Virus record (IMG/VR): IMGVR_UViG_3300044712_002452
Location: 75,336-139,335 of that record
Origin: a virus
Lineage: Duplodnaviria; Heunggongvirae; Uroviricota; Caudoviricetes
Strand: one strand, 5' to 3'
DNA: 64,000 bases
This document shows, one piece after another, positions 2,670 to 64,000 of the stretch. The position numbers and the translations under genes are program-made. Under the pieces are notes generated by a model that was not told where the DNA came from, searched no databases, and saw nothing but the letters and a program-made list of their open reading frames with translations. How positions within the stretch are numbered: position 1 is the first letter of the stretch; each line of letters begins with the position of its first letter.

Positions 2670-2679
2670 AAAATAATAT

Positions 2680-3105: not shown

Positions 3106-3107
3106 AT

Positions 3108-3350: not shown

Positions 3351-3403
3351 TTTCTTGCTTTTAATGATTTGAATTAGTTATTCAATACCCTTCCAACGTT
3401 GCT

Positions 3404-4012: not shown

Positions 4013-4027
4013 AACTCTATTTTAGAA

Positions 4028-4453: not shown

Positions 4454-4457
4454 AACT

Positions 4458-5528: not shown

Positions 5529-5604
5529 TGTCCTTCTTTTTTCAGGTTAATAAATCCCTCTGTTGGGGGTTCAATCGGGTCGGGGTGGATGGAGTGTAGT
5601 TCTG

Positions 5605-10881: not shown

Positions 10882-10907
10882 AAAAATGGTTTGTAAATGT
10901 GGTTTAA

Positions 10908-10939
10908 TTCTACAAATATAGAATTGCCAAATCTACAAA
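10908..10939 (-). promoter_or_regulatory. two tandem TTTGTAGA(A/T)TT motif copies upstream of gene 10327..10881
   Basis: Minus strand reads TTTGTAGATTTGGCAATTCTATATTTGTAGAA. Confidence 0.45.
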
Positions 10940-13233: not shown

Positions 13234-13247
13234 GTAATACGATATTT

Positions 13248-19126: not shown

Positions 19127-19743
19127 GATTGGTGTTGATTTAAAAGAATTTGTTGAACGTTTTCAGGTAATTCGTGTGGATACTGACCGTCTAAGATTCG
19201 TTGATACATATCGGCCAGCGGACTAATAATGGATTTACTGTCTTTGTCGTGTCGTAGTATAAAATACTGCGAACAATGACTAAAAGCAAAATCTTCCTGC
19301 GTTTTGATTTCCAGATACCAGGCTGTAGCCAGTAAAATGATATCCCATTCTACCATAGAGGTAAACATGGTAAAAAAGCTTTGAAAGGTTTTTTTGAGAA
19401 TCAGCGCCGGCTGCCGAGCATATTTACCACTGTCCAATAATTTTGCAGGCCACATCATCCGATAATATTCAATTAAAGCATCTGGAATTTCAATATCCGA
19501 AGGTTTCTTAGCTTTTGGCTTTTTGACTTTAATAGGCGGTGCCGGGAAGAGCTGACTTAACGCCAACTCCCCCTGTTCCGTAATGGAAGCACCTTGCATC
19601 AGACCCTTGTTTACCAAGGCGGCATACTCTTTATTAATGTCAATATCTAAGGGTTGAACTCTTTCTTTATAACACAACATCAGATAAATCTGGTTGGGTG
19701 TTAATTTGAAGGGTTTCGCACTTAGCAGAAATTTCTTTAGCAT
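19120..19743 (-). CDS. hypothetical protein
   Basis: 207 aa. Start uncertain; it may be the internal Met near 19680. Confidence 0.4.
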   Translation of the reverse strand: MLKKFLLSAKPFKLTPNQIYLMLCYKERVQPLDIDINKEYAALVNKGLMQGASITEQGELALSQLFPAPPIKVKKPKAKKPSDIEIPDALIEYYRMMWPAKLLDSGKYARQPALILKKTFQSFFTMFTSMVEWDIILLATAWYLEIKTQEDFAFSHCSQYFILRHDKDSKSIISPLADMYQRILDGQYPHELPENVQQILLNQHQSC

Positions 19744-20344
19744 ACAGGATTTCCAACTCTGTTAAGATTCTTTCGTAGATATTTTGGATAATAGGCTCTT
19801 CTTGGATCCAATCAGACCCAATCTGTAAATTGTGAATAACGGTACTGTGATCCCGGGGTTTCCGAAAGGAATTACCCAATTCTTTGAGTGAAGTAACCGA
19901 ACTGTACGTATGCGCAATCATAGCAAAACAATAGCGATAGTACAGGTATTCTCTTTCCCGATTGTAAGCCGTGACCATAATAGGGTTCAATCCATCTTGT
20001 GCAGCAATTTTTTCAACGATATCTCGAACTTGTTTGACCGGAAAGTGTTTTCTCGGTAATTCGGTCATTTTGTACCAAACTTCAGGGGCAATTCCGACTT
20101 TTTCAAAGAAAGCTTTTTTAAATTCACGGATCATTTTATCCGCCATGATGCGCTGATATTCACGGACTTCAGCCAGTTCAATATTGGTCAATTTGTCGGG
20201 ATCCGTTTTGAGTTTTTTAAACGAAAGCTCGTATTTAGGAATTCGTTCTTCTCGAGCCATTTTTACTTGATCCTGATAGTTTTGTCGTTGGTACCCTCTT
20301 CCGGGTACAAAAACCCGTTTTTTTCGTGTTCGGTGTAAGGTCAT
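19667..20344 (-). CDS. DnaA C-terminal (domain IV) DNA-binding domain homolog
   Basis: REYLYYRYCFAMIAHTYSSVTSLKELGNSFRKPRDHSTVIHN aligns with E. coli DnaA domain IV, R..ARQ.AMAL....[20 protein letters not shown]. ATG at 20344 verified; the promoter motif at 20391-20401 lies upstream. Confidence 0.6.
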   Translation of the reverse strand: MTLHRTRKKRVFVPGRGYQRQNYQDQVKMAREERIPKYELSFKKLKTDPDKLTNIELAEVREYQRIMADKMIREFKKAFFEKVGIAPEVWYKMTELPRKHFPVKQVRDIVEKIAAQDGLNPIMVTAYNREREYLYYRYCFAMIAHTYSSVTSLKELGNSFRKPRDHSTVIHNLQIGSDWIQEEPIIQNIYERILTELEILYAKEISAKCETLQINTQPDLSDVVL

Positions 20345-20390
20345 GGGGCATATTTTACTGATTGATAGATTAATTTTGTATATTTTATTA

Positions 20391-20425
20391 AGTCTACAAA
20401 TGTAACGGGTTATATTTGTAGAATT
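20391..20425. promoter_or_regulatory. divergent promoter pair carrying TTTGTAGA motif in both orientations
   Basis: AGTCTACAAATG faces the minus gene whose start is 20344. TATATTTGTAGAATT faces the plus gene whose start is 20466. TATATTTG matches the Bacteroidetes -7 element TAnnTTTG. Confidence 0.55.
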
Positions 20426-20465
20426 ATTTTTTTCACTTATTTTTTTTTGTCCAATACCTAATTCT

Positions 20466-20798
20466 ATGAGCGTGAATAACTTAACTGGATTTAAAGCTTG
20501 GTTGACTCCGGTTATCGGAAGTGTACTGTGGTTTTTTATTTGGAGAGATTTATCAGAGCTACGCAGCGATGTAAAAATTCTCTTAGAAAACAAAACCGAA
20601 TCCAGTGGAGAGATTAAAATACTCAAAGAAGATATGCAGCGGGTAAAGGACCGATTGTGGTACAATCCTTCTTCACAAACCCCAGTTTCACAGACGGCTT
20701 TTATCAATACACCCGATAATGCGCGTCAAAAAGGGCCTATGTATCCAAAATGTCGCAAAGGCTATGCGGCATTCATCCATAAAGAAGATGAAGATTAA
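20466..20798 (+). CDS. membrane protein, first gene of lysis cassette (holin-like candidate)
   Basis: N-terminal TM VIGSVLWFFIW. Sits directly upstream of spanin and lysozyme. The promoter motif TATATTTGTAGAATT lies 45 nt upstream. Confidence 0.4.
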   Translation: MSVNNLTGFKAWLTPVIGSVLWFFIWRDLSELRSDVKILLENKTESSGEIKILKEDMQRVKDRLWYNPSSQTPVSQTAFINTPDNARQKGPMYPKCRKGYAAFIHKEDED

Positions 20799-20818
20799 TC
20801 CTTATAAATCAATCAACT

Positions 20819-21478
20819 ATGAAAACCATTCAATTATTTAAGTCTACTTTGAAAACCACTATTCCCAATCTGATGATTGGGCTTTCACTTTTAATGTTTG
20901 CTCTATGGGTACTGGCATCCGGGTGTCAAACGGCTGTAAAAAAAGTTTTGCGGGATCCTGAAAAGTTCAATCAAGTCGCAGATGAAGTGTTTCGTAGGGG
21001 TTTATGCGTCAATGATACGATCGTAACCTACGATACTTCTGGCTACCGAGTGGTTTTTGACACGATTTATACAATTTCTGATACAGGTAGGATTTCTTTA
21101 GAAGGGTTTATTCCAATGATTAACACGGATTCAAGAGATTTTATGAAGCCTGGGGAATTACTTTACAAGCCGGCGGCTACTCCAAAACCGGTTATTCGAA
21201 CCGTTTATCGAGATCGTGATATTATTAAAACACTGACAGTCAAAGACCAAAAAGAACTGGAAACCGCTAAAAAAGACCATGCTAAAGAAATATCCGTGTT
21301 AGAAAAGCGAAAAAATGCCGAGATCAACGCTTTAACGGCAGAACTCAAGCATGTGCGCGGGGTACTCCGAAAGACATCGCTGGTATTATATCCTTTGCTG
21401 ATACTTATATTGATTTGGGGCGGTATTCGGCTTTATCGATTTATTGCTAAGCTGAGCATTCCGGTACCTTTCATTTAA
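20819..21478 (+). CDS. unimolecular-spanin-like lipoprotein
   Basis: Signal peptide plus lipobox LASGC at the N-terminus, and a C-terminal TM LVLYPLLILILIWGGIRLY. Located between holin-like gene and endolysin. Confidence 0.45.
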   Translation: MKTIQLFKSTLKTTIPNLMIGLSLLMFALWVLASGCQTAVKKVLRDPEKFNQVADEVFRRGLCVNDTIVTYDTSGYRVVFDTIYTISDTGRISLEGFIPMINTDSRDFMKPGELLYKPAATPKPVIRTVYRDRDIIKTLTVKDQKELETAKKDHAKEISVLEKRKNAEINALTAELKHVRGVLRKTSLVLYPLLILILIWGGIRLYRFIAKLSIPVPFI

Positions 21479-21489
21479 TACATATCCTT

Positions 21490-21954
21490 ATGAAAGCCAG
21501 TGAAAAAGGGTTAAATCTAATCAAAGAGTTCGAAGCTTTTCGATCTAAAGCCTATTTGTGCCCAGCAGGCGTACCCACCATTGGATATGGTAGCACTTTA
21601 TGGCCAGACGGTAAAAAAGTACGTTTGGGGGAAACAATCACCCTGGATGGAGCTTTAAAGCTACTGAGTATAGAAGCCACGTTCAAAGGTGCTGAAATTC
21701 TAAAATACCTGCATCCTACTCAAATCAATCAGAATCAGTTTGATGCTCTGGTTTCATTTGTATTTAATGTAGGGGTGAAGAATTTTCAAATTTCAAACTT
21801 GGCTCAAAAAGTCAAGAAGAATCCGAACAATCCGCTTATTCGGAATGAATTCATGCGCTGGAATAAACATCGGGATCCTAAAACCCGCCAACGTATAGTA
21901 AGTCGGGGGTTAACTCGCCGGCGAGGGCGAGAAGCCGATTTATACTTCAGTTGA
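21490..21954 (+). CDS. endolysin, T4-type lysozyme (GH24)
   Basis: GLNLIKEFEAFRSKAYLCPAGVPTIGYG matches the GH24 catalytic Glu region and the PTIGYG signature. Confidence 0.85.
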   Translation: MKASEKGLNLIKEFEAFRSKAYLCPAGVPTIGYGSTLWPDGKKVRLGETITLDGALKLLSIEATFKGAEILKYLHPTQINQNQFDALVSFVFNVGVKNFQISNLAQKVKKNPNNPLIRNEFMRWNKHRDPKTRQRIVSRGLTRRRGREADLYFS

Positions 21955-32612: not shown

Positions 32613-32634
32613 ACAACACCATTAAAAAACTCCG

Positions 32635-33143
32635 TGGAGCCGGGGGGAGTCGAACCCCCGTCTTGATAAGAATCCCCATTAGCATACTCTTACGTGCGTA
32701 GTACTGAAGTGTCCACCGCGCTACCTTCCGGCTTTGCTTTGTCTGTATTCTTCTGCACCGTAGTTAGGGCTGCTGGTTAAAGCAACCTCCACCACCAACT
32801 TTTGAGAAAAGCTGGAAAACGAATCGGAGTTAGCCTATCCGATAACCAGATTGTATGCCGAATCTCACGGCGCAACTTCGGTACTATTAGTTTGGCGTAC
32901 GCCACTCTCCCTACCAATCTGTATATAGTTTTGCGACTTTCTGTTCCACCACTGTCGCCGCGGGATCGCAAATTAAGCTGCTACAGCTTCATTCTGGAAG
33001 ATGCTTGCCAAGATGGCTTCACCTTCAGCGATGCGGGAAATCTTTGATTTGCCGTTTATAGAATTCCATGGATTGCAGGCACATGGCGCCCTTACACGAT
33101 GCTAACGTTGATCACGAATCAATCAAATTCCAAAGTCGGCCCC
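32635..33143 (-). ncRNA. ssrA: tmRNA (ssrA)
   Basis: On the minus strand the 5' end GGGGCCGACUUUGGAAUUUGAUUGAUUCGUG parallels the E. coli tmRNA 5' end. The 3' end GACGGGGGUUCGACUCCCCCCGGCUCCA has a T-arm plus acceptor, and the 7-bp acceptor pairs GGGGCCG/CGGCUCC. An internal reading frame ends ...QNEAVAA-UAA, like YALAA. A rho-independent terminator follows at 32588-32612. Length about 509 nt; 5' end is less certain. Confidence 0.6.
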
Positions 33144-34698: not shown

Positions 34699-35050
34699 GG
34701 CGTAAATTTTGAGAATTAGAGATTTTTGTATCGATCGCGGGCATTGATGTCCAGCGGTTGATCTTTGCCGGCAACAAGCGCAGCGTAAATCCAAATGAAC
34801 AACCCTGCGCATAAAATAGTACCCGTTAATAAGTATTTAAGTTCCATAGGTGCTTTTTTTTGAATTGAAAGAATCTGAAACTTTGGTTTTTTGGGCGTTT
34901 TGTGCCCGGCGGTTGCGCCAGTCTATGCCGTATATAATATACCACAGGGCGCCGAGTAATGCAATCTTCATTTGGAGAGTTTTAGTCTACGAATATAAAT
35001 AAATCTACACAATAAATATGTAGATTTATTTAATTTTTTTTTGAAACGCG

Positions 35051-39334: not shown

Positions 39335-39518
39335 TACCGAGGACAGGATTCGAACCTGTATGCCGCACTTCTAGCATTTATCATTTCTGCCGACTTTCCA
39401 ATCCTAAGTAGGTCAGAATCTAGTTGTCCCACTGACTAATGGCTTTCATCAGATTTTTAATGCTTAGGGTATGGGGTGCTGCTGAATCTCATGCGTCTAC
39501 CAATTTCGCCACCTCGGC
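39335..39518 (-). tRNA. tRNA-Leu-like gene interrupted by an about 120-nt insertion
   Basis: 5' part GCCGAGGUGGCGAAAUUGGUAGACGCAUGAGAUUCAG matches the canonical tRNA-Leu start (acceptor, D-arm, CAG in the anticodon-loop position). 3' part ACAGGUUCGAAUCCUGUCCUCGGUA is a T-arm plus the acceptor CCUCGGU, complementary to GCCGAGG. The two parts are 184 nt apart. Confidence 0.4.
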
Positions 39519-49252: not shown

Positions 49253-49274
49253 GTTTTATACTTTAGGTGGAAAC

Positions 49275-49350
49275 AAATCTACAACTTAAATCTACATTTC
49301 CAAATTTATTTGTAGAATAATTTTGCGGTTTCAATTTAGTTTGTAGATTT
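49275..49350. promoter_or_regulatory. cluster of four TTTGTAGA-family motifs (two per orientation) at the edge of the switch region
   Basis: AAATCTACAAC and AAATCTACATTT on the minus side. TTTGTAGAATAA and TTTGTAGATTT on the plus side. Confidence 0.45.
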
Positions 49351-49418
49351 GCATCCAGCAATCGTGGGAGCTTAACCGGGGGCGGTTGAGATCCTTTATG
49401 TTGGGGTACAAGTTTCGT

Positions 49419-49452
49419 TAATTTTGTGTTTTAGGGACCGACCTGCGTTTTT
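49419..49452 (+). terminator. plus-strand rho-independent terminator inside the non-coding switch region
   Basis: GACCTGCG-ttttta-CGCGGGTC then TTTTTTTTG. No plus-strand CDS lies upstream of it. Confidence 0.5.
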
Positions 49453-50251
49453 ACGCGGGTCTTTTTTTTGCCTAAAAATCAAGTCTCTAAAATAATTTTG
49501 TAGATATAAAAACCGTTTGTAGATTTGTTGCCCAACATAGGATTGTTTATCAATCCATCGGTTGATGTATGTTCGGCTGCGCTATCGCCCCCGCTTTAAA
49601 ACTTGGTGACAAGTAGGGTTACGGGAATTCGGTAGGGTACCCGATGTCGGTTCTGCCGGCGCTTAAAGCACAAATTGAGGTACGTAAAATCCATGGGTCT
49701 GCTTTGATTAAAACATTATTCAAGGTTCGTTTCGGGGGAAACTAAGATTCATCTCTTGTAAAGGTTCACGGGTAAAACCGGGAACGGACAAACAAACTCT
49801 CTGAGGCTTTAAGGGTATATCAACCGCTGATCAAGCAACCGGGAAAAATTAAACCCGGTTGCTTTATACCAGGAGCGAACCCGCTCGTGTTAACCCTCGG
49901 TATATACTTCTTACAATAGGTCTTGTATGTTTTGAGTAAGGTTAGAAAAATTGACTGTATCCTTCGAATGTACTTGCTTTCAGGACCTATCCCACGCACG
50001 CACACGCGTAAGCACCCATTCCAATCGTAAAAATTTTTCCCCGCCGGCATGGGCCGGACATAAAAAAGCCCCAAGATAAATAGCTCGGGGCGTATGGTGA
50101 TATCCTGAACTTCACCATTGACCTACAACAAAAATAAAAAAATAAATGTAGGAAAGAAAATTAATTCGCTTTTTATTGTAGATATATTTTGTAGATTAAA
50201 ATACTATTTGTATGTTCGTATTATCTATTCTCTGAATTCAAGTTAAAATCC

Positions 50252-53668: not shown

Positions 53669-53705
53669 AAGTCCAATGAGCCTTATATACTAAGGATTAA
53701 CCATT

Positions 53706-53720
53706 AATCCTTATCCTATG
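53706..53720 (+). promoter_or_regulatory. late-gene start-context motif AATCCTTATCCTATG
   Basis: The same motif abuts the ATG of terL (53718), the portal gene (55958, ATATCCTATG), the capsid gene (60176) and the gene at 63812. Confidence 0.45.
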
Positions 53721-55943
53721 AATCCTATCCTAACTGCGGCGGCAACGCCGTTTAAAGAAGTGCCGTATCTGGATGCCGATACCGGCATTTGGTCCACTCG
53801 ACTTTTTGACACCCGAGAACATTTTGTTTCCTTTCTCTGGTCTTGTTTCAAAGAACCGGGCAAATATGAGTTCGATCAGTCCGTTTTTAATATCAATGAA
53901 GAAGGCCGGAAATTTCAAGCCCGTAATTATTACACTTCACTGGTTCCCAAAACCAAAGACTGGAAGCATTACTGGGATACCCAAAAGCTTCGCTCCCGTC
54001 AAGGGGTCGTTTTAACCCACCAAGGGAAGACCTGGTATTTTACGCGGGATTACTACATGTGGTTGAACTTCTTACCCATCTACCACAAAGAAAAAAAGGT
54101 GTTTGCTTTTCCGGCTATTCGAGACGTTCAATATCATATTGCGCTATTCGAAACGATCGCTGAATACACTTTTAAGCATGTGGTATTGCTTAAAAAACGG
54201 CAGATTGCCTCTTCTTATTTCCACGCCGGCAAGCTCATCAACGGCTTTTGGTTTGAAGAAGGATTTGTGGGTAAGATGGGTGCTTCGCTTAAAGACTACA
54301 TCAATGAAAAAGGTACTTGGCTGTTTTTAAACGAATACTCCAACTTTCTCAACACCCACACGGCTTGGTACCGGCCTATGAATCCGGGAAAAGTGTTTGC
54401 TTGGGTGCAGCAAGTAGAAGTCAAAAACAACGGGCGTACGCAAACGCGCGGTTTGAAATCCCGCATTTCGGGTATGTCTTTTGAAAAAGACCCGACCAAT
54501 GGTGTAGGTGGACCTTGTACTTTTTTCTTCCATGAAGAAGGGGGTATTGCGCCACAAGCCGATACTACTTATGAGTTCATTCGACCCGCTATGCAGGATG
54601 GATTTATCACAACCGGTCTATTTGCTTTAGCGGGTTCAGTGGGTGATCTGGATCAATGTAAGCCGCTGGAAAAATACTTGAAGAACCCAATGGGGAACGG
54701 ATTTTTAGGGGTGGAAACAGATCTCTTTAATTCCAAAGGGGAACGCCGGGTATGCGGTTTGTTTATTCCCGAACAGTGGGGTATGCCGCCATTCATTGAC
54801 CCATATGGAAACTCCATGGTGAAAGAAGCCTTGGAAGCCATTATGGAACAACGGGCGGAATGGAAAAAAGACTTGGAGCCGCAGGAATATCAACTGCGGA
54901 TTTCGCAGGGGCCCATTAACATTGAAGAAGCCTTTGCTACCCGAAAGCTCTCCAAATTTCCGGCACATATCCTGCAAGCCGAAATTCAAAAAATAGAAGA
55001 CAAGACTTATCCCACTGAATACCTGGAACTCTACCGAACCGAACAAAACAAGATTCAGGCGCGTACCAGCCGGCGAACGCCGATCGTGGATTTTCCCATC
55101 AGTGCCAAAACCGAAAACAAAGAAGGGGTGCTAGTAGTGCACGAGCGGCCGGTGGAAAATGCGCCTTGGGGAAGCTACTATGCATCCATTGACCCGGTAG
55201 GTGAAGGTAAAACCACAACCTCGGATTCGCTTTGTACTATTTACGTTTACCGGGTTCCGACCGAAGTAGCGGTGTACCGCTCGGATGGCTCGCTCAATCA
55301 CACCCGTATTGATGGGGATTATGTGGTCGCGCATTGGTGCGGACGTTACGATGATATCAAAGACACCCACGAAATGCTGGAAATGATCATTGAGTGGTAC
55401 AATGCTTGGGCGCTAGTGGAAGCCAACGTCAGCTTGTTTATCAATTACATGATCACCCAGAAAAAGCAAAAATACTTGGTACCCAAAGACCAGATTGTTT
55501 TCTTAAAAGAACTGAGTGCCAACCAATCGAGCTATCAGGATTACGGATGGAAAAACACCGGCACTTTTTTCAAAACCAATTTGCTGAGTTATCTCATTGA
55601 GTTTATCAAAGAAGTGGTGAACAACGACTTTGACGAAAACGGAAAGGTAATAGAAGCCAGTAAAAAATTTGGGGTTTGCCGGATTCGAGATAAAATGGCT
55701 TTGGTAGAAGCCCTGGCTTATCAGGATGGACTCAACGTGGACCGATTGGTGGCACTGGCCGCTCTGATTGCTTTTGTCAAATTGCAGACTGCCAACCGAG
55801 GTTACAAGAAAATCAAAGAGTATGAAACCCCTTTGGTAGATACTCAAAAAAAGGCTAATTTATTAGTAAGGCAACCTTTTCGAAATCTGGAACGTGGGCG
55901 ATCCACGCAGGGTATTCGTAGACGACCTTTCAAAAATTTATAA
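53718..55943 (+). CDS. terL: terminase large subunit
   Basis: Deviant Walker A VLTHQGKT (T4 gp17 has SRQLGKT). C-terminal RNaseH-like nuclease motifs YASIDPVGEG and WALVEANVS. Gene order TerL-portal-scaffold-MCP. Confidence 0.65.
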   Translation: MNPILTAAATPFKEVPYLDADTGIWSTRLFDTREHFVSFLWSCFKEPGKYEFDQSVFNINEEGRKFQARNYYTSLVPKTKDWKHYWDTQKLRSRQGVVLTHQGKTWYFTRDYYMWLNFLPIYHKEKKVFAFPAIRDVQYHIALFETIAEYTFKHVVLLKKRQIASSYFHAGKLINGFWFEEGFVGKMGASLKDYINEKGTWLFLNEYSNFLNTHTAWYRPMNPGKVFAWVQQVEVKNNGRTQTRGLKSRISGMSFEKDPTNGVGGPCTFFFHEEGGIAPQADTTYEFIRPAMQDGFITTGLFALAGSVGDLDQCKPLEKYLKNPMGNGFLGVETDLFNSKGERRVCGLFIPEQWGMPPFIDPYGNSMVKEALEAIMEQRAEWKKDLEPQEYQLRISQGPINIEEAFATRKLSKFPAHILQAEIQKIEDKTYPTEYLELYRTEQNKIQARTSRRTPIVDFPISAKTENKEGVLVVHERPVENAPWGSYYASIDPVGEGKTTTSDSLCTIYVYRVPTEVAVYRSDGSLNHTRIDGDYVVAHWCGRYDDIKDTHEMLEMIIEWYNAWALVEANVSLFINYMITQKKQKYLVPKDQIVFLKELSANQSSYQDYGWKNTGTFFKTNLLSYLIEFIKEVVNNDFDENGKVIEASKKFGVCRIRDKMALVEALAYQDGLNVDRLVALAALIAFVKLQTANRGYKKIKEYETPLVDTQKKANLLVRQPFRNLERGRSTQGIRRRPFKNL

Positions 55944-55957
55944 TCCGGAGATATCCT

Positions 55958-58735
55958 ATGAGAGTACTCAATGCGCTGCAAATCAAAAATGGAGTCGGTG
56001 TCGGTCAAAGACGCTCCGGTACAACTTTGCTTACCCGACCCCTAAACTTCGTATCTGAAACGGAGAAAGATGAAGACTGGGCTATGGATCACATGGACTG
56101 GCTGGAAGAAGAAGGTATCAATCAGATTCGGCGTAAAGCGCCCAGCATGCTCAAAAAGTATCGATTGGCGCAAGGGGTGATTGATCGCAGCGATTATATT
56201 CCCGATGAATCCTGTAATGAGCATGCGGAACTCATTGACTTGCTCACCCGCAACGAAGAAAACACACCCAGCAAACTAAAATTCTATCCCATCATACCCA
56301 ATGTGATGCGGATCCTGCTTACCGAATTTGCCAAACGTCGATCCAAATTAGAGTTTCGGGCCATTGATACTTTATCTCAAAACGAGATCATCCGCAAAAA
56401 GACCAGTGAAATTGAAGAAGTCTTGATGTCAGAAGCTTACCAGAAGCAGCTTTTGTCGATGATGGAAATGGGTTATCAGCCGGATGATGAAGAAGTGGTA
56501 CAAGCCCTTAGTGCGGACAATTTAAAAAAACTCCCTGAAATTGAAGAGTATTACCGCCGGGATTATAAAAGCGACTATGAACTCTGGGCCAATGTCCAGC
56601 ATGCCGCAGATGTCGAGCGTTTTTGTTTTGATGAAAAAGAATTAATCGCTTACGGTGATTACCTGACAGTTGGAGAACAATATTGGCATTACCGGATGAT
56701 GGAAGACGACTATGAAGTGGAACTCTGGAATCCGGTGTTTACGTTTTCGCATAAAAGCGTCGACAAAAAATATGTGAGCGAAGGCAATTTTGTCGGAAAT
56801 ATTCAGCTCATGCCTTTTGCAGATGCCATTGACGCCTATGGTTATTTGATGGGTGACATGGATTTTGAAGATATGGAGCAACGCAATTTCCGGCACGTTT
56901 CGGGAAATAGCAATCTGTACAGCTCTAACACCCAAAATGACGGGTCGATGTACGACAGTTCCAAGTCTTATGAATGGAATACCAATCTGCCGGGCGTGGC
57001 CATGCGCCAATACTTAGATGCCCGCGGACGGTTTAACTCTTCGGATTTTATGGATGAGATTATCAATGGTTCCGGATACCAGGATCCCTTTGATACTTAT
57101 TCCGAAGATTTGGTGCGGGTATCTACAATGTATTGGATCTCCCAGCGAAAAGTGGGTATTCTAACTGAACAGCTCGGGCCGGGCATGCCGGTGACTAAAC
57201 TTGTGACTGAACAATTTAGTGTTACCCATCAGCCTATTTACAATACCACGGTTTTCACTGAAAAAAGCGAACTCAATTTGGTGTATGGTCAGCACGTAAA
57301 CTGGTTCTGGATCAAAGACCTTTGGGGTGGCGTGAAGATTTCACCCAATATGGCACCGGCCCGGCTGCGTGGTAGCAATACTTCTTTTGAACCGATTTAC
57401 CTGGGTATCGATTCCAAGAAACCCAGTCGCATGCGGTTTCAACCCAAAGGATATTCCGGTAAATATTCGGTTTGTCTGCCAGTAGAAGGATTGACAGGTA
57501 CGGCCCGAAATTCGGAAATCCGCACGCCGGTCGATTTAATGACCCCTTCTCAACTGCAATTCAATATGGTCAATAACCAAATTGCAGATATCATGATCGA
57601 TGAGAAAGGACAAGTGATGTTGCTCGATCATAATGCTTTACCCAAAAATTCAATGGGTGAAGAGTGGGGGCATGGTAATTTGGCAAAAGCCTATGCGGCT
57701 ATGCAAGATTTTGGAATCTTGCCTTTGGATACCGTGATTTCCAATACCGAAAACGCTTTGAATTTCTCTCACTACCAGGTGTTGAATTTCGAAGAAACCA
57801 ATCGTTTGCTCGGTAGAATACAACTGGCCGCTTATTTCAAGCAAGAAGCTTATTCAACTCTGGGTATCAACCCGCAGCGTATTGGCGGTGAAACCGGCCG
57901 GCAAACAGCTAAAGGCGTAGAAGAAAACCTCAACGCTTCTTACAACCAAACGGAAACTTGGTTTATCGAACACTGTGATCATTTGATGCCTCGGGTTCAC
58001 CAAATGCGGACCAATTTTGCTCAATACTATCATTCATCTAAATCCAGTTTTCGACTGCAAGTACTGACTTCCAATAGTCAGCGCAAGATGTTTGAGTTCT
58101 CCGGCGAACAATTAAACGGGCGGGATATTCACGTGTACGCGGTTACCAAAAGCAATCGCCGGGAAACTATGCGTAAACTCGAGTCTTTGGCCATCAACAA
58201 CAATACGACCGGCGGATCCTTGAATGATTTGGGATCACTGATGAACGCAGAAAGCCTGATCGAAATGACGGATGCTCTGGCACGGATTGAACAAAAGCAA
58301 CAGGCGGCGCTGGAAGCTGAGCGTGCCCACGAAAAAGAAATTGAACAGATGCGCATGCAAGAGCAAGCCGCTATTCGGGATAAAGAACTGGCCCAAGAGA
58401 AACAAATTGCAGACGATAAAAACAAGACCGATATCATCACCAGCGAAATCAAAGCGGCGGGATATGGTTCTATGGAAGATATCAATGCCAATCAGCAAAG
58501 TGATTACCTGGATGCCCTTGACCGGATTCAGGCTTCCGAGCAGTACCGGGATACCATGGACTTTAAACGGGAGCAAGAGCGCAATAAGATTCAAGTGGCT
58601 AGAGAGCAACTGAACCAGAAAATGCAGGATCGTGCGAGCAAAGAGCGGATTGCTGACAAACAACTTCAGGTTGCACGTGAAAACAAAAACAAGTACGACG
58701 TAGAAAAAAAGAAAAAAGCTAACGCAAAAAAATAA
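55958..58735 (+). CDS. portal protein with Lys/Glu/Gln-rich coiled-coil C-terminal extension
   Basis: 925 aa, lies between TerL and scaffold. The last about 150 aa are a highly charged coiled coil. Confidence 0.5.
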   Translation: MRVLNALQIKNGVGVGQRRSGTTLLTRPLNFVSETEKDEDWAMDHMDWLEEEGINQIRRKAPSMLKKYRLAQGVIDRSDYIPDESCNEHAELIDLLTRNEENTPSKLKFYPIIPNVMRILLTEFAKRRSKLEFRAIDTLSQNEIIRKKTSEIEEVLMSEAYQKQLLSMMEMGYQPDDEEVVQALSADNLKKLPEIEEYYRRDYKSDYELWANVQHAADVERFCFDEKELIAYGDYLTVGEQYWHYRMMEDDYEVELWNPVFTFSHKSVDKKYVSEGNFVGNIQLMPFADAIDAYGYLMGDMDFEDMEQRNFRHVSGNSNLYSSNTQNDGSMYDSSKSYEWNTNLPGVAMRQYLDARGRFNSSDFMDEIINGSGYQDPFDTYSEDLVRVSTMYWISQRKVGILTEQLGPGMPVTKLVTEQFSVTHQPIYNTTVFTEKSELNLVYGQHVNWFWIKDLWGGVKISPNMAPARLRGSNTSFEPIYLGIDSKKPSRMRFQPKGYSGKYSVCLPVEGLTGTARNSEIRTPVDLMTPSQLQFNMVNNQIADIMIDEKGQVMLLDHNALPKNSMGEEWGHGNLAKAYAAMQDFGILPLDTVISNTENALNFSHYQVLNFEETNRLLGRIQLAAYFKQEAYSTLGINPQRIGGETGRQTAKGVEENLNASYNQTETWFIEHCDHLMPRVHQMRTNFAQYYHSSKSSFRLQVLTSNSQRKMFEFSGEQLNGRDIHVYAVTKSNRRETMRKLESLAINNNTTGGSLNDLGSLMNAESLIEMTDALARIEQKQQAALEAERAHEKEIEQMRMQEQAAIRDKELAQEKQIADDKNKTDIITSEIKAAGYGSMEDINANQQSDYLDALDRIQASEQYRDTMDFKREQERNKIQVAREQLNQKMQDRASKERIADKQLQVARENKNKYDVEKKKKANAKK

Positions 58736-58806
58736 TTTTTTGTAGAATTTGAAATTTATTCTACAAATGATTATATTATAATTGTAGATAAAACCAACTA
58801 TTTGAT

Positions 58807-60123
58807 ATGAGTCAAAATCAAAGCGGAGCATCCGTGGTGGTTCAGGCTGCCGACGACAACGTAATCGATGATTTGTTTAATTCCATGCCGGGGTCAGATA
58901 ACATCATCAACGATCCAGGAGCAGGCGATAATGGTCCAGATGATTTGACCGAACCAAAAAACTTGTTGAGTAAACCAACACCATCGGCTATTGATCAGAT
59001 TTTTGGAGACACCCCTCGGCCGGCAGCAGTGGTAAAAGGAACGGTAAGTACTGAAACGGACGAGTTGCTCAACGATATCACCGGAGATGCGTCAAATAAC
59101 TCAGATGAAAATGGGGGTGATCCTGACCAAAAAGATACCGGTGGAAAAACAGGTTCTAAAACACCGCTGGTGAATTTCATCAAAAAGGGAGTAGAAGCGG
59201 GAACCATGCAACCCTTTGATGATTACGATGCTGAAAAAAGTTCTTTGGATGAATACCTGGCTTCTTTGACCTATGCGGAATTAGAAGAGTTGTTGGAAGC
59301 CAATAGCAGTTTGGAAAAAACGCAACTGAAAGAAACGGTTGAAAAAGAGTTCTTGGAAAATTTGCCGCGTGAAATGCAGTACGCACTGCGCTACATCGCT
59401 GAAGGGGGTACGGATATGCAAACCTTGTTTGCTTCATTGGCTCAGGCTCAACAATTGACCAATTTGGATGTAAGCAACGCCGAACACCACAGCGAAATCG
59501 CCCGACAGTATTTGCACGCAACCAATTATGGTACGCCTGAAGAGATTGAGCAAGAAATTTCCGATTGGGAAAAAGCCGGGGTATTAAATCGGAAGGCTGC
59601 GCAGTTCAAACCGAAACTGGATGCCATGCAGGATCAAATCTTGCAGGACAAGGTGGCTGAACAAGCAAGAGCCAAACAGAAAGCAAAAGAGCAAACCGAG
59701 CTTTATTTTAATAATGTGTATGAGGCTTTAAAGCCCGGTCTGATTGGAGAAGTGAAGATTGATAAGCGCATGCAGCAGTCTTTGTATGATGGATTGACCC
59801 AGTTCAATTTCCCATCTAAAAGCGGGAAAATGACCAATGAGTTAGGTCACTTGATTGAAAAGCATCAGTTCGAAGAACCCAATTTGGCTTTGCTGGCCGA
59901 AGCCCAATGGTTACTCAGAGATCCGGAAGGATACCGAGCTGAATTGTTGAAACTGGGTTCCGCTAAATCGGCCGCTGAAGCGCAGCAAGAATTGAATAAA
60001 GAGCAGAGTCGAAAATTAGCGGGAAGTGGAAAAACCGCTGAGACAACCGGTAAGCCTGCCACCGTAGAAAAAAAGGTAAGCAAACCGGCGATCACCCGGT
60101 CGGTATTAAGCCGAAAGTTTTGA
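58807..60123 (+). CDS. scaffolding protein candidate
   Basis: 438 aa, acidic N-terminus and helical/coiled-coil content. Lies between portal and capsid genes. Confidence 0.45.
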   Translation: MSQNQSGASVVVQAADDNVIDDLFNSMPGSDNIINDPGAGDNGPDDLTEPKNLLSKPTPSAIDQIFGDTPRPAAVVKGTVSTETDELLNDITGDASNNSDENGGDPDQKDTGGKTGSKTPLVNFIKKGVEAGTMQPFDDYDAEKSSLDEYLASLTYAELEELLEANSSLEKTQLKETVEKEFLENLPREMQYALRYIAEGGTDMQTLFASLAQAQQLTNLDVSNAEHHSEIARQYLHATNYGTPEEIEQEISDWEKAGVLNRKAAQFKPKLDAMQDQILQDKVAEQARAKQKAKEQTELYFNNVYEALKPGLIGEVKIDKRMQQSLYDGLTQFNFPSKSGKMTNELGHLIEKHQFEEPNLALLAEAQWLLRDPEGYRAELLKLGSAKSAAEAQQELNKEQSRKLAGSGKTAETTGKPATVEKKVSKPAITRSVLSRKF

Positions 60124-60175
60124 TCTGAAAACCTATGAAAAATTATATTAATCAATAATCCTTAATCCTTATCCT

Positions 60176-61801
60176 ATGGCAACTCCCGTTCTTAATAACG
60201 GTATTTTCTTGCGGGAAGTTTCTTACGAAACTACCGCCCATGTGGATTCTTATCACCTCTACAACCTCATCGGGAAAGATGCCATGACGGATCTGGGTCC
60301 GGTAGAGTTGTTTGCCCACGCGCAAAAGGTAGAAATACCTTTGTATCAGATGGCAAGCTTTGGCGGTAAGAATGTCATCATGGTTCAAAACAGTCGTGGT
60401 GAATTCAAATGGGATATTCCCATTCTGCAAGATTTGCCAACGTTCATGGAAGACATCGAACCCGGTAACACCGAAAAGGGTCGTGATGGTAGCACCTTCA
60501 AAGTGAAAGTAAGCCGTCGGGCCTTCTCTCACGGAGATGTGTTTTCTTATGACAAATACAACGGTGTCGAAATTTACATCACCGATGAAGACATCCTGGA
60601 TGGTGGTGATAAAGCCGTGATTTACACGTGTCGCTTGGTCAACAACGACAACGCGAAGTTTCTGGACAACAAGTACATCAAGCATGGTACCAAGTTGTTC
60701 CGTAAGACTTCTGCCAAATCCGGCGAGTACGGTGAGAAGTTCTCTGATTTGGGTAACCAAACGGCCGGACACCGTGAGTACTACAACTATGTAGGGGGTG
60801 CCGAAGCACACTGTCATTTCCATATTTCGTCTAAGGCGGATATGATGGCAAAAGGTGGTTTGCTCAACAATGGCCGGGTGCCGGTAACGGAACTCTGGCG
60901 TTCATTCGACAGCAACTTGGATCCTTCCATCCGCAGCTTGGATGAAATGGCCAAAAAAATGGGTAAGGACTACATGAAAAAGTCTTACGAAAAAGGTACT
61001 CTGGTACGCAATTTCGTGACCACCATCGAATCCAAGTGTATTCAAAAAGTCGCCAACGACATCGAAAGTTACGCGATGTGGGGTCATGGTGGTCGTCTGC
61101 GTCAAGACGGGCCTGATGATTTCCGTTTGAGCGTAGGTCTTTGGAAGCAATTGGATAACGCCTGGAAGAAGAAGTATAACAAAGGTGCTTTCACCATGGA
61201 CTTCTTCAAGGGTGAAATTTTCAACTTCTTCGCAGGTCGCGTAAGTTTTGAAGGTCCGGATCCTAAGCGTAAACTGATCGTTCAAACCGGTATAGCGGGT
61301 ATGCGCGTAGTAAGTGCTGCCATCGAGCGTTATGCATTCGCTTCCAATCTGGTGATGAATGCTACGGAGCTGGGTGCGATCACCGGTAAGGGTATGAACC
61401 TAGACTTCGGTTTTGCGTTCACTTCTTTCACCATTCCGTATCTGGCAAACGTTCAGTTCGTATTGAACCCTGCTTTTGACAGCGTTCATACCAACGATAT
61501 TGAAAACCCGATCATTGACGGTCATCCGCTGAGCTCTTACAGCTTTGTGATCTTTGACGTTACCGATCAAGGTTCTGACAATATCTTCTTGCTCAAATGG
61601 GCGCATGACCATGAATTGAAGTGGTTCTACCAAAATGGTACCATGGACTACATGGGTCGTTCAACCGGATTTGCATCTACCGGCCTGTTCTCAGGTTACA
61701 AGGTGTATATGCAACAAACCATGCCGGCCATTTGGGTTAAAGACCCAACTCGCGTGTTGAAGATCGTGATGACCAATCCGATCACAGGCGGTTCACTGTA
61801 A
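60176..61801 (+). CDS. major capsid protein candidate
   Basis: 541 aa. Highly-expressed-gene codon bias (GGT/CGT/AAG). Followed by the strongest terminator in the window. Confidence 0.55.
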   Translation: MATPVLNNGIFLREVSYETTAHVDSYHLYNLIGKDAMTDLGPVELFAHAQKVEIPLYQMASFGGKNVIMVQNSRGEFKWDIPILQDLPTFMEDIEPGNTEKGRDGSTFKVKVSRRAFSHGDVFSYDKYNGVEIYITDEDILDGGDKAVIYTCRLVNNDNAKFLDNKYIKHGTKLFRKTSAKSGEYGEKFSDLGNQTAGHREYYNYVGGAEAHCHFHISSKADMMAKGGLLNNGRVPVTELWRSFDSNLDPSIRSLDEMAKKMGKDYMKKSYEKGTLVRNFVTTIESKCIQKVANDIESYAMWGHGGRLRQDGPDDFRLSVGLWKQLDNAWKKKYNKGAFTMDFFKGEIFNFFAGRVSFEGPDPKRKLIVQTGIAGMRVVSAAIERYAFASNLVMNATELGAITGKGMNLDFGFAFTSFTIPYLANVQFVLNPAFDSVHTNDIENPIIDGHPLSSYSFVIFDVTDQGSDNIFLLKWAHDHELKWFYQNGTMDYMGRSTGFASTGLFSGYKVYMQQTMPAIWVKDPTRVLKIVMTNPITGGSL

Positions 61802-61810
61802 TTCATCAAT

Positions 61811-61850
61811 GAAGTGTCGCAGCCTTAAACAAGCTACGGCACTTCATTTT
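61811..61850 (+). terminator. rho-independent terminator after major capsid gene
   Basis: GAAGTGTCGCAGC...GCTACGGCACTTC, 12/13-bp stem, followed by ATTTTAT. Confidence 0.6.
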
Positions 61851-61854
61851 ATAA

Positions 61855-61926
61855 AGCGGGGTAGAGCAGAGGTAGCTCGTTAGGCTCATAACCTAAAGGC
61901 CGGTGGTTCGATCCCATCTCCCGCTA
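61855..61926 (+). tRNA. tRNA-Met (CAT anticodon; elongator or Ile-lysidine type)
   Basis: Cloverleaf: acceptor AGCGGGG/TCCCGCT, D-arm GAGC-AGAGGTA-GCTC, anticodon arm TTAGG-CTCATAA-CCTAA, T-arm GGTGG-TTCGATC-CCATC. Confidence 0.75.
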
Positions 61927-61958
61927 CTGATTCGATAAACCAACACAACCACTTCACT

Positions 61959-62984
61959 ATGTCAAAGTCATTTGAAGAAATGATCAGCGATGATAAGCTG
62001 AGTCAGCCACAATCTGAAATTTTCATTCGTCCTTTTGTAGAAAAGGGTAAACTGAACATGGGGCTTGAACGATACGAGCAAGTTCTTTTTGAAGGCTGTT
62101 TTCACGAAGAAACTCTTTCTTGCTTAGAGTCAAACGGTATCAAGCGTTACTTGACCGGTCTTGACGAATTTGCCCCTGAAATCAAACGCTTACCTACGGA
62201 AGAGCGTGTAGCTAAAGTCAAACAAATTCGCGCAACGGTAGCGGAACTGGAAAAAGTGCTGGCCGGAAATGTGCTGGATGTAGAAAGTGCTGATTTTTGG
62301 AAAGATGTGCAAATTTTGACCCCTAAGAATTATGATTTTTGGGAAACGGTAAAAGTGAAATTGGGTAACGAGCCAACGTTACTGGATACCAACAATCCCA
62401 TCGATATCATCAAGTTGGCAGCCATCGAAGCCGGCGGATTCAGCATCATCGCCAAAGATTTGGAAACCGCCCGTAAAATGGCGATTGCCCCTAAATTTTA
62501 CCTGGACAAGCGAGAAGATACCGCCACTTATGTGACCGAGCCTAAAAAACTATACGGTCGTTGTCAATCAGAGCTAATGAAGCTCTACGATAAGATGCCC
62601 AACAAGATGTTCATGATCTGTAAGGTCTTTGATATCAACGGCACTCAGTTGAAAAAAACAACTTCTCCGGATGTCGTGTACAATTACTTGTACGATACGC
62701 TGGATGGTACGCGCGGTGAGTCCAGAAACCTGAATAAAACGCACACTATGTTTTTGGACTTGTGTGCGCAAAACATGGAAGTATTGACCATGCGGGCTAT
62801 TATTCGGGATGGATCCCACTGGAAAAAAGTGCACACCAAAGCTGACGGCTTTATTTACCATACGGCTACCAATACCATGATGGGTAAAAATCCCAGTGAC
62901 GTATTGGAGTTTTTGAAAAACCCGCTCAATGAAGCGGTGTTGCGTGAGCTGCAGGATGAAGTAGAGCAAATCTGGAAACGCTAA
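61959..62984 (+). CDS. hypothetical structural-module protein
   Basis: 341 aa ORF. Confidence 0.45.
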   Translation: MSKSFEEMISDDKLSQPQSEIFIRPFVEKGKLNMGLERYEQVLFEGCFHEETLSCLESNGIKRYLTGLDEFAPEIKRLPTEERVAKVKQIRATVAELEKVLAGNVLDVESADFWKDVQILTPKNYDFWETVKVKLGNEPTLLDTNNPIDIIKLAAIEAGGFSIIAKDLETARKMAIAPKFYLDKREDTATYVTEPKKLYGRCQSELMKLYDKMPNKMFMICKVFDINGTQLKKTTSPDVVYNYLYDTLDGTRGESRNLNKTHTMFLDLCAQNMEVLTMRAIIRDGSHWKKVHTKADGFIYHTATNTMMGKNPSDVLEFLKNPLNEAVLRELQDEVEQIWKR

Positions 62985-63003
62985 TTCAATTTGAATAACT
63001 GAT

Positions 63004-63714
63004 ATGACCATTCAACTTTTACAGATCAAGTTTCAACAGCGGCTTAACAAGCTGGCTTCTCAGGATTTCGACAATATTGAATCCTGGCAAATTGTTGAAG
63101 CTTATGATAAAGCCGAACTGCAAGTAGTTCGGGATCTGTTGGATGGAAAAACGCTTAAAAGAGATGGCCAAGGTTCGTCACTATTTTCGGTGACGGACCT
63201 TCAGCCTTTAATTACACCCAATCATACCTTAAACGGTACGGATCAGGGTGACTATTTTGTTTCTTTGCCCTTACCGGAAAATTTCATGCAGTGGGTGGAT
63301 GTTTCTGTAAAAGCCCAATCGGGTTGTTGCCCTGGAGAAAAAAGAAACCTTACTTGTTGGTTGGTACCGATTGAAAAAAAATCGTTGTGGGAAAAGGATG
63401 AATCCTTTAAAGCTAGTTTCTATTTTGCTGAAACCTTTGCATACCTGGCTTCCAATCAAATTCATATTTGTCAGCAAGATGAGTTTAAAGTGTGCGAAGC
63501 GGTTTTGTCATACTATCGCTTGCCCCGCGGGATTCAAATTGCCGGAACGATTTCTCCGTCTACCGGAAAAATGGCGATTAAAGACACGCTTCCCGAATTA
63601 AAAGATGATTTGGTAGAACTGATCATTGATCAAGCGGTGGCTATTATTGCAGCAGATACCGAGAATTGGAATCAAGCACAAAGAGCCGGTCAAAACGTAG
63701 CGCAACACGTGTAA
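63004..63714 (+). CDS. hypothetical structural-module protein
   Basis: 236 aa ORF. Confidence 0.45.
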   Translation: MTIQLLQIKFQQRLNKLASQDFDNIESWQIVEAYDKAELQVVRDLLDGKTLKRDGQGSSLFSVTDLQPLITPNHTLNGTDQGDYFVSLPLPENFMQWVDVSVKAQSGCCPGEKRNLTCWLVPIEKKSLWEKDESFKASFYFAETFAYLASNQIHICQQDEFKVCEAVLSYYRLPRGIQIAGTISPSTGKMAIKDTLPELKDDLVELIIDQAVAIIAADTENWNQAQRAGQNVAQHV

Positions 63715-63811
63715 AATATTTTTTTTCTAAAAATCAAAAGCCTTCTATTTTTTGATTATATTCTAATTGCAAGCTTTACTTAAACTTTTTATTTTATAAA
63801 ACCCTTATCCT

Positions 63812-64000
63812 ATGAGTCATTTTCCCAATGCGTTTAAAAAGGTTTTTGTTGTTACGGATTTCTTGAATGCCGGTGCAACTAAAACCCATCAACTGACTAA
63901 AAATCAGTTTGCGTTCTACGATTTCAATACTTGGGCCTTGGTGCCTACAGCCGAAGCTACTCAAGCCCAACACCCGTTGGTTCGTTTGGTAGCGGGTAAT
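63812..64000 (+). CDS. hypothetical protein, partial (continues past window end)
   Basis: ATG directly preceded by CCCTTATCCT. MSHFPNAFKKVFVVTDFLNAG... Confidence 0.4.
   Translation, partial: MSHFPNAFKKVFVVTDFLNAGATKTHQLTKNQFAFYDFNTWALVPTAEATQAQHPLVRLVAGN

Follow-up and report, generated by a model that had tools for sequence, protein, structure and literature searches.

How the ribosomes of Bacteroidota choose and rank start codons without Shine-Dalgarno (SD) pairing is an open question, as is how the phages of these bacteria, including the very abundant Crassvirales, reach very high capsid expression and late timing. Both are raised by a short pyrimidine-rich block that ends exactly at the ATG of several late genes in a 64,000-nucleotide stretch of phage DNA (positions 75,336 to 139,335 of IMG/VR record IMGVR_UViG_3300044712_002452), here called the window. 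The block is compact, conserved, fused to the start codon, and specific to late genes, and it breaks two known "Kozak-like" rules. On balance, we consider that it is probably a start-associated leader element of late-class genes, acting on the mRNA in SD-independent translation initiation.

The window belongs to a 139-kb contig of a crAss-like phage. Together with an extension, L279 (window positions 53004 to 73714), which was recovered from the same contig by exact protein look-up and is identical in the overlap, a total of 73.7 kb was read. No close relative was found among GenBank phages; the nearest major capsid protein (MCP) found anywhere was 70% identical (lineage L282), followed by a very large clade at 67 to 69%. 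By comparison to PHROG, TerL is located at 53718 to 55943, the portal at 55958 to 58735, and the major head protein, which is Crass_capsid by Pfam, at 60176 to 61801. Genes lie on the minus strand up to approximately 49.3 kb and on the plus strand from 50252 onward. The minus-strand module corresponds to replication and nucleotide metabolism (DnaB-like helicase, helicase, PD-(D/E)XK nuclease, dCTP deaminase, and a DnaA domain IV protein).

A pyrimidine-rich block fused to start codons

The original prediction described the same block at the ATG of TerL, the portal, MCP, and the gene at 63812. On rereading, all four sequences proved exact, and the series could be extended to five exact copies. 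The copies are as follows (nt, nucleotides; aa, amino acids).

53705 to 53717, plus strand: TerL copy, ccaTTAATCCTTATCCT-ATG (these positions read TAATCCTTATCCT), abutting the ATG at 53718, with units at -12 (AATCCTT) and -6 (TATCCT)
55951 to 55957, plus strand: portal copy, ggagATATCCT-ATG (these positions read ATATCCT), abutting the ATG at 55958; one unit only, in the 14 nt that separate the TerL stop from the portal gene
60156 to 60175, plus strand: MCP copy, TAATCCTTAATCCTTATCCT-ATG, three tandem units (TAATCCT-TAATCCT-TATCCT) abutting the ATG at 60176
63798 to 63811, plus strand: copy of gene 63812, aaaaCCCTTATCCT-ATG (these positions read AAAACCCTTATCCT), abutting the ATG of a 395-aa product that starts MSHFPNAFKK
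65005 to 65016 (window equivalent), plus strand: exact copy beyond the window, directly 3' of the stop of gene 63812
72032 to 72043 (window equivalent), plus strand: exact copy beyond the window, preceding a 311-aa secreted L,D-transpeptidase-like protein
69541, plus strand: variant copy, TTATATTAATCCGTATCC-ATG

The exact 12-mer CCTTATCCTATG was found five times in the 73.7 kb, always on the plus strand and always with the ATG at distance 0, while approximately 0.01 copies would be expected from base composition. The 9-mer CCTTATCCT had three exact matches in 128 kb (both strands of the window), each abutting the ATG of a long open reading frame (ORF), those of TerL, MCP, and gene 63812. With up to two mismatches allowed, the 12-mer matched nine times (3.9 expected), and the matches located at gene starts were only the three exact copies and one at 20457. 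The block is real, nonrandom, and conserved.

Alignment of all copies resolved the block into one to three G-free units of WAYCCT (AAUCCU, UAUCCU, or AACCCU as RNA), with three units at MCP, two at TerL, 63812, and 72041, and one at the portal. The last unit, TATCCT, is at distance 0 from the ATG in six genes, while the positions of the units relative to the ATG differ from gene to gene (-6, -8, -12, -19, and -22). The MCP start codon is fixed by its N terminus, MATPVLNNGI, which is conserved in relatives. All exact copies have C at -3 and T at -6, and those of TerL, MCP, and 63812 contribute AA at -12/-11. Of 113 genes, 24 have a looser single unit, WAHCC(Y)T, in the 30 nt before the start, where 5.6 would be expected. 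Most block-bearing genes had no annotation in PHROG, Pfam, or PDB sequence searches. The one at 72041 to 72973 (L279 19038 to 19970) has a signal-peptide-like N terminus (MKKTFWVLLL) and an L,D-transpeptidase (YkuD)-like domain (PDB 5e51/4jmn, E = 2e-5), and its product may be a second cell wall enzyme.

The block had been described as something other than an SD sequence, and this was borne out, since it is G free and has no purine run. An SD sequence would be a purine-rich, GGAGG-like run 5 to 10 nt from the start that can pair with the 3' end of 16S rRNA. Neither an SD sequence nor a purine run was found at the block genes or at any other gene; the upstream regions of 104 genes are G poor (2 to 13% G at -21 to -6) and contain 59 to 64% A at -12 to -10. 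This genome-wide start context, with no SD sequence and with A at -12 to -10, fits the Bacteroidetes pattern (PMC6847099). Judging from these sequence features, the host is of the SD-less, Bacteroidota type.

The block marks late-class genes, including a lysis cassette

The assignment of the block to late genes also held. We took as late class the genes on the plus strand, including a plus-strand island at 20466 to 21954. The pattern [AT]ATCC occurs within 25 nt upstream of 11 of the 27 late-class genes, compared to 4 of the 79 early/middle genes on the minus strand (Fisher p = 3e-5), and a CC(Y)T end abutting the ATG was found in 7/27 and 2/79, respectively (p = 9e-4). The T-flavored unit (WATCC) marks late-class genes. 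The island consists of three genes inside the minus-strand replication module, and since the last one encodes a phage lysozyme (E = 1.5e-32), we consider it a lysis cassette, apart from the structural module. All three of its genes have block-like leaders.

20457 to 20465, plus strand: leader of lysis gene 1, CCTAATTCT, abutting the ATG at 20466
20796 to 20804, plus strand: leader of lysis gene 2, TAATCCTTA, 14 nt before the ATG at 20819, overlapping the upstream stop in a 20-nt spacer
21482 to 21489, plus strand: leader of lysis gene 3 (phage lysozyme), ATATCCTT, abutting the ATG at 21490 in an 11-nt spacer

Conservation in related phages

To follow the element through related phages, we used 80 IMG/VR loci with approximately 68% MCP identity and, for the distance statistics, 71 distinct relatives. 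Upstream of MCP, this 68% clade carries (T-rich)-TAACCCYTAAA, 10 to 12 nt, and (G)CCCT-ATG. The TAACCC core and a YCCYT end occur together in 49 of 61 sequences. The element (TAACCCTTAAA...GCCCT-ATG) is located at exactly two genes, MCP and the orthologue of 63812 (approximately 450 aa, starting MYFPNAFRK), and the family composite was never seen on the opposite strand in 1.3 Mb of relatives. In this clade, TerL overlaps or abuts its upstream gene, and the motif is not present there. A sister subclade has neither core nor end at MCP, its leader being plain, A rich, and of similar length. In L053-type relatives, a TATATT at -33 is fused to TAACCC.

Lineage L282 is intermediate, with AAATCCTAAACCCTTAAAAATCCT-ATG at MCP and TTAATCCTAAATCCCTTTAAAA-ATG at its orthologue of 63812 (the YFP orthologue). 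In addition, it has the exact 15-mer AATCCTTATCCT-ATG at a nonorthologous gene, the next one after the YFP orthologue. The maintenance of this exact sequence at a different gene, in a lineage with only 70% MCP identity, argues for sequence-specific recognition. The comparison of L282, the 68% clade, and the sister subclade indicates that the element is old, that its flavor differs by lineage but is common to the genes within a genome, and that it can move between genes.

In the 71 distinct relatives, the distance from TAAYCC to the ATG has a standard deviation of 1.7 nt (22 to 24 nt in 60 of them), compared to 6.5 for the MCP intergenic length (range, 23 to 54 nt) and 8.0 for the promoter-to-ATG distance of the gene neighboring MCP. 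The motif therefore keeps to the start codon, and neither the upstream gene nor a free-floating transcription start site (TSS) sets its position. In many relatives, it starts at the upstream stop codon or no more than about 5 nt from it, in spacers of 23 to 31 nt.

An exact-pattern scan of IMG/VR for AAYCCTTATCCTATG returned 118 matches, nearly all in-frame coding or chance. The in-frame ones encode the peptide NPYPM in portal genes of unrelated phages. One match (L184) is found beside a tRNA-like sequence on the other strand, and use as a leader was seen only at one unrelated capsid-like gene (L188).

Promoter-like elements around the block genes

The following promoter-like elements were found near block-bearing genes.

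63752 to 63769, plus strand: host-type promoter-like element, TTGATTATATTCTAATTG, 43 to 60 nt upstream of the ATG at 63812; the predicted leader of about 36 nt holds the block
58768 to 58788, plus strand: family-conserved promoter, TGATTATATTATAATTGTAGA, of the gene upstream of MCP, included for comparison
20411 to 20418, plus strand: exact match to the Bacteroidetes -7 box, TATATTTG, ahead of the lysis cassette, 48 nt before the ATG at 20466
60143 to 60149, plus strand: AT-rich box TTATATT, 33 nt before the ATG of MCP; its counterpart upstream of TerL is TTATATA at 53683 to 53689

The element at 63752 is nearly identical to the family-conserved promoter at 58768, and the gene behind the latter has no block but an ordinary A/C-rich leader. 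All subclades share a strongly conserved promoter-like element (TTTAAAGTTG-TATATT-nnTnATG-TAGAG), different from the block, before the gene upstream of MCP. In Flavobacterium johnsoniae, the TSS is 4 to 5 nt from the promoter box (PMC6847099); as the boxes ahead of 20466 and 63812 are 40 to 55 nt upstream, the same spacing would place the block within the predicted leader. The block thus lies downstream of promoter consensus matches at these genes.

The block itself does not match the Bacteroidetes -7 box (TAnnTTTG), which may or may not have TTTG or TTG upstream, as the block contains no TTTG, and true matches to this box are those at 20411, 58768, and 63752. Nor does it match the sigma-70 -10 element, a TAnnnT hexamer some 7 nt before the TSS that in leaderless genes would fall at about -12 to -7 from the ATG, since positions -13 to -8 read TAATCC, AAACCC, or TAAGCC, without the terminal T. 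A sigma-70 consensus scan showed no promoter excess (24 matches, 25.6 expected). A -35/-10-like pair at 60120 to 60149, TTGATC-N18-TATATT, scores 9/12, and the TTATATT box is possibly part of a promoter. TTATATW recurs 14 to 56 nt upstream of eight late genes, on the plus strand only. Because some of these genes have no block and the distance from box to block varies from 10 to 47 nt, box and block are independent modules and not a bipartite promoter.

For phage phi14:2, 5' ends have been mapped, and its middle/late promoters are of the host RNA polymerase type, TTTGC...TAnnTTTG (Drobysheva et al., bioRxiv 10.1101/2020.03.07.982082). Its g092, equivalent to the gene upstream of MCP, has a TTTGC...TATATTTG promoter, and a 31-nt A-rich spacer precedes its MCP. 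The simplest model would have MCP transcribed from the promoter one gene upstream, the MCP spacer being a translation initiation region (TIR). The plain A-rich MCP spacers of the sister subclade and phi14:2 suggest that translation initiation was the ancestral role of this spacer. We also used contig ends as a proxy for TSSs in a metagenome scan with the MCP N-terminal coding pattern; the contigs recovered were long, with no pile-up of ends, and the short Logan contigs begin 68 and 175 nt upstream, so that neither set pointed to a TSS.

Another repeat of promoter type is the 11-mer TTTGTAGAWTT (Bacteroidetes -7 box plus start region), with 35 matches on both strands of the window against 7.6 expected. 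It clusters at 10906 to 10939, 13244 to 13284, 20375 to 20425, 35001 to 35027, 49275 to 49526, and 58739 to 58767, often in inverted or direct pairs, including a perfect inverted repeat, TTGTAGAAT-N9-ATTCTACAA, at 58741 to 58767 between the portal and the next gene.

RNA structure and neighboring RNA features

At TerL, the block takes part in an inverted repeat.

53692 to 53712, plus strand: inverted repeat AAGGATTAA-cca-TTAATCCTT, formed by an "anti-block" and the first of the TerL block units

The RNA at 53683 to 53735 is predicted to fold at -9.9 kcal/mol (z = -3.5), with the AAGGAUUAA arm pairing to the first unit and an outer stem covering the AUG. The leaders of MCP (-1.4 kcal/mol) and 63812 (-0.6 kcal/mol) are essentially unstructured. 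Ranked by unpaired probability of the start region among 114 genes, MCP is 8th and TerL 100th, and the block group as a whole is not shifted. The idea that the block does no more than keep starts unstructured was set aside, as block genes do not rank consistently high for accessibility. The predicted TerL hairpin would mask a strong start signal, in keeping with a protein of which few copies are required.

The copy at 65005 to 65016 is different in that it opens an ORF of only 25 codons and forms part of the base of an extended terminator stem, on its 5' side. This stem, formed by an A tract and a U tract after the 63812-type gene, is found in both lineages (L279 11990 to 12060, window equivalent 64993 to 65063; L282 15630 to 15700), with -22 kcal/mol and z of about -5 in each and the shape of a bidirectional terminator. 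L282 has a degenerate block copy at the same position. A mini-ORF or attenuator was considered here and rejected, because ORF length is not conserved (25 versus 7 codons) and the ATGAAA after the block is the base of the A-tract stem in both lineages.

No Rfam 15 family matched at the block; the only matches in the window were a tRNA, a transfer-messenger RNA (tmRNA), and another, weak tRNA match. Base pairing between the block and 16S rRNA, with the 790 loop (AGGAUUA) or a GGAU next to the anti-SD as partner, was also set aside, since the helices would be weak or fall in structured rRNA and would be broken by the C-flavored family motif.

Directly after the MCP terminator hairpin (approximately 61811 to 61846), a tRNA-Met (CAU) is encoded at 61855 to 61927 on the plus strand. 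It is initiator-like (5' GCGGGG, an A11:U24 pair, a CUCAUAA loop, and two of three anticodon-stem G-C pairs), with A1-U72 in place of the bacterial C1xA72 mismatch, and is 85% identical to the tRNA-Met of the uncultured crAss phage cr60_1. No tRNA-Met gene was found in the 24 relatives' loci scanned.

A proposed leader element for translation initiation and its alternatives

Under the reading that we favor, late genes would be transcribed from promoters farther upstream (20411, 63752, and, ahead of the MCP operon, 58768) or as operon members, and the block would consequently be transcribed within a 5' leader or an intercistronic spacer. There, the unstructured pyrimidine/A leader would recruit the 30S subunit, via ribosomal protein bS1 or via a phage-made late factor recognizing WAUCCU, and position it on the adjacent AUG, raising translation. 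At TerL, the complementary anti-block arm would fold over block and AUG, holding translation down. Of the functions proposed originally, a translation initiation element for SD-less Bacteroidetes-type ribosomes gave the best fit, because the motif is anchored to the start codon (distance 0 in six genes and a standard deviation of 1.7 nt in relatives), because units recur gene by gene in tiny spacers (20, 11, and 14 nt, the first two in the lysis cassette), and because host-type promoters lie upstream of two block genes. The off-rule bases at -3 and -6, together with the late specificity and the exact conservation, suggest that the block is read specifically, whether by bS1 or by a late factor of the phage.

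Several observations weigh against this interpretation. Transcription of the block is deduced solely from promoter consensus matches. Adenines at -3 and -6 promote initiation in F. johnsoniae and Escherichia coli (PMC6847099), and the block, lacking both, would not be an optimal host TIR by known rules. Specificity for a temporal class is more typical of promoters than of ribosome-binding sites, the block-bearing start regions as a group are no less structured than others, and the copy at 65005 to 65016 is not explained by a pure start signal. Among the 102 window proteins, Pfam recognized no sigma factor, bS21, S1, KH, CSD, or other RNA-binding protein, and the only complementary RNA found in the 73.7 kb was the block's own antisense and the TerL hairpin arm.

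A stronger form of the same idea, which we regard as rather unlikely, is a phage "late ribosome-binding code" in which a factor reading AUG-fused WAUCCU repeats would select late mRNAs in an SD-blind Bacteroidota host. The factor might be phage encoded or might be a phage-modified ribosome or initiation complex, perhaps with participation of the phage initiator-like tRNA-Met. Late expression would then be timed at translation, including that of the lysis genes behind their ordinary host-type promoter. In a variant, the block may instead be the promoter of leaderless late mRNAs served by the phage initiator tRNA.

The main alternative, possible if doubtful, is that the block works on DNA as a late promoter or initiator for a phage polymerase or for an RNA polymerase retargeted by a phage late factor, with transcription starting in the block or at the ATG and leaders of 0 or 1 to 10 nt. 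Late-class specificity is the usual signature of a promoter, and small phage late promoters do precede individual genes within operons, as does that of T4 (TATAAATA). The 68% clade motif, which follows a T-rich tract, is bipartite (TAACCCTTAAAT, 5 to 7 AT-rich nt, a purine, and CCCT-ATG) and is suggestive of a recognition box with its start site; position -5 is a purine in both clades. The initiator-like tRNA-Met after MCP, present in this lineage alone, could favor leaderless initiation. At 72041, moreover, a terminator-like hairpin is only 27 nt from the ATG, and if it terminates, the promoter must be in or near the block. However, TATCCT at -6 to -1 used as a -10-type element would start transcription inside the ORF, and the conserved N terminus of MCP pins down its start codon. 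Neither the sigma-70 nor the Bacteroidetes consensus is matched by the block, and canonical promoters are already present upstream of two block genes. The positions of the units vary by gene, as listed above, and by clade (-12 versus -22), which leaves no single TSS geometry; the distance to TTATATT is also variable, and in many relatives the motif is pressed against the upstream stop codon. The leaderless late promoter proposed originally thus found less support, as TATCCT is too near the ATG, no consensus is matched, and a separate family promoter is nearby.

A quite unlikely explanation is an operator for a sequence-specific RNA- or DNA-binding protein, such as a T4 RegA-like repressor, or an RNA processing or stability site for 5' ends. 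It would account for an exact 12- to 15-mer kept across 30% protein divergence at nonorthologous genes, for the repeated units and the inverted-repeat version at TerL, for the copy beside a terminator instead of a gene, and for the poor fit to positive TIR determinants at -3 and -6. On the other hand, no candidate binding protein was found among the window proteins, the 7-nt spacing of the units is unsuited to a DNA-binding dimer, nothing in the sequence suggests a known nuclease site, and repression makes little sense for the capsid gene, which bears the strongest (triple) version. That the copies are functionless, derived by recombination or duplication of one leader cassette or by chance, appears very improbable. 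Recent gene conversion would also give identical copies within a genome, and the element does occur at different genes in the window and in L282, but chance would hardly produce five exact 12-mers, the same 15-mer survives in the divergent L282 lineage, and the family version keeps its distance from the ATG at two orthologous genes in more than 70 distinct genomes. Binding by the phage DnaA domain IV homologue (19667 to 20344), suggested originally from the resemblance of TTATCC to half a DnaA box, is hardly credible. TTATCC does equal the first six bases of TTATCCACA, and there is no doubt about the homologue (Bac_DnaA_C, E = 1.2e-7; score of 32.1 bits, with a cutoff of 31.5), but the idea of a DnaA box did not hold: the block shares only TTATCC with TTATNCACA and continues with TAT instead of ACA, the full box is not enriched (four matches, 3.0 expected) and has none near the block, relatives keep the element as TAACCC...GCCCT without TTATCC, and strict single orientation and fusion to the ATG are foreign to DnaA boxes, 9-mers that usually cluster and can take either orientation.

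Comparison with known systems

The closest described phenomenon is the start-associated sequence (SAS) of Cluster K mycobacteriophages, asymmetric repeats of approximately 13 bp, ATG associated, in one orientation and 3 to 7 bp from the start codon (Pope et al. 2011, PMC3203893). SAS are found at a subset of genes and kept across subclusters at different gene families, some with an upstream inverted repeat (ESAS) (PMC3203893); their function is still untested (PMC12699233). Like them, the block is a short asymmetric repeat with several copies per genome, in a single orientation, near start codons and ATG associated, confined to a subset or functional half of the genome, and conserved across relatives at differing genes, and the ESAS inverted repeat recalls that of TerL. 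However, SAS (GGGATAGGAGCCC) contains an AGGAG SD core, while the block comes from an SD-less system and is devoid of purine runs; the block is at distance 0 from the start; and SAS are found on nonstructural right-arm genes, unlike the block, which occurs on late genes for structure, packaging, and lysis. The two are unrelated in sequence and in phylogeny, with actinobacteriophages on one side and a Crassvirales-like phage on the other, and the block is an analogue of SAS and not a member. If it is a translational signal, it would be a second, independent example of this phenomenon, a strong portable TIR for Bacteroidota engineering, and a handle for finding its reader factor. As a promoter, it would give this crAss-like branch its first late-promoter motif and would imply leaderless late mRNAs. 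No description of a start-fused motif in Crassvirales was found in the literature searched.

The SD-less TIRs of Bacteroidetes (Baez et al. 2019, PMC6847099) are enriched in A at -11 to -14, with bS1 as their proposed reader. Little secondary structure around the start is another trait of such TIRs; in this respect, the block genes range from MCP (8th of 114) to TerL (100th). The block resembles them in the absence of an SD sequence, in its G-poor leader, and in adenines at about -11 to -13 (AA at -12/-11 in the block and AAA at -11 to -13 in the family version). It differs in that the A-3 and A-6 determinants are replaced by C and U, and in being a specific repeated sequence of one temporal class of phage genes instead of a compositional bias.

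Among phage elements, phi14:2 belongs to the same phage group and has a host-type promoter before the gene upstream of MCP, as at 58768 and in all relatives, but its promoters differ from the block in sequence and place, and there is no pyrimidine block at its MCP. The T7 gene 10 leader contains an enhancer, epsilon (UUAACUUUA), that works with a strong SD sequence and for which pairing with helix 17 of E. coli 16S rRNA was proposed. It is likewise a short non-SD leader sequence of a phage major capsid gene, and the family version UUAACCCUUAAA looks similar. However, the block has no SD sequence and no rRNA complementarity could be shown, and the resemblance may be coincidental, both being AT rich. 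Similarly, ATTAACCCT of the relatives matches 9 nt of the T3 promoter. Promoters of this type are conserved over about 23 bp, with fixed spacing to the +1 G, and are served by a single-subunit polymerase that the phage encodes. A T3/T7-like promoter was rejected, as the spacing to the G varies by 3 nt and there is no single-subunit polymerase among the window proteins. The late promoters of T4 are short class-specific motifs directly upstream of individual late genes. The TATG motif of phiKZ is of the same kind; it overlaps the start site and reads like the end of the block, and its TSS is the G of TATG (PMC4666361). The block units, by contrast, are at no fixed distance from any plausible TSS. 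A phiKZ-type late promoter was rejected because a TSS at that G would remove the start codon; neither a phiKZ-type nor a T7-type polymerase was found among the window proteins.

Other features of the window and its relatives

The junction between the minus- and plus-strand modules contains two long noncoding stretches (49253 to 49819 and 50051 to 50251), rich in TTTGTAGA/TCTACAAA repeats and, at 49440 to 49461, with a strong bidirectional-looking terminator. The intergenic regions of phi14:2, which are highly transcribed, offer a parallel, and the stretches may accordingly represent an origin, a cluster of early promoters, or a noncoding RNA. The tmRNA gene is located at 32632 to 33143 on the minus strand, in a 591-nt ORF-free stretch (Rfam RF00023, 57 bits, E = 1e-19, full-length model), and was missed by ARAGORN. 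The weak tRNA match at 39335 to 39518 (minus strand; 32.5 bits, just over gathering) spans 184 nt, so that it could represent either a tRNA carrying a long insertion or intron or a spurious match. One of the 102 window proteins has an Acb2/Tad1 hairpin domain (E = 1.8e-14), of the anti-CBASS/anti-Thoeris sponge family, and another matches a SegE-type GIY-YIG endonuclease (E = 6e-27). In L282, TerL (2635 to 5580) has 981 aa, compared to 741 aa in the window phage, and a weak LAGLIDADG_3 match, which together suggest an intein or a homing endonuclease insertion.

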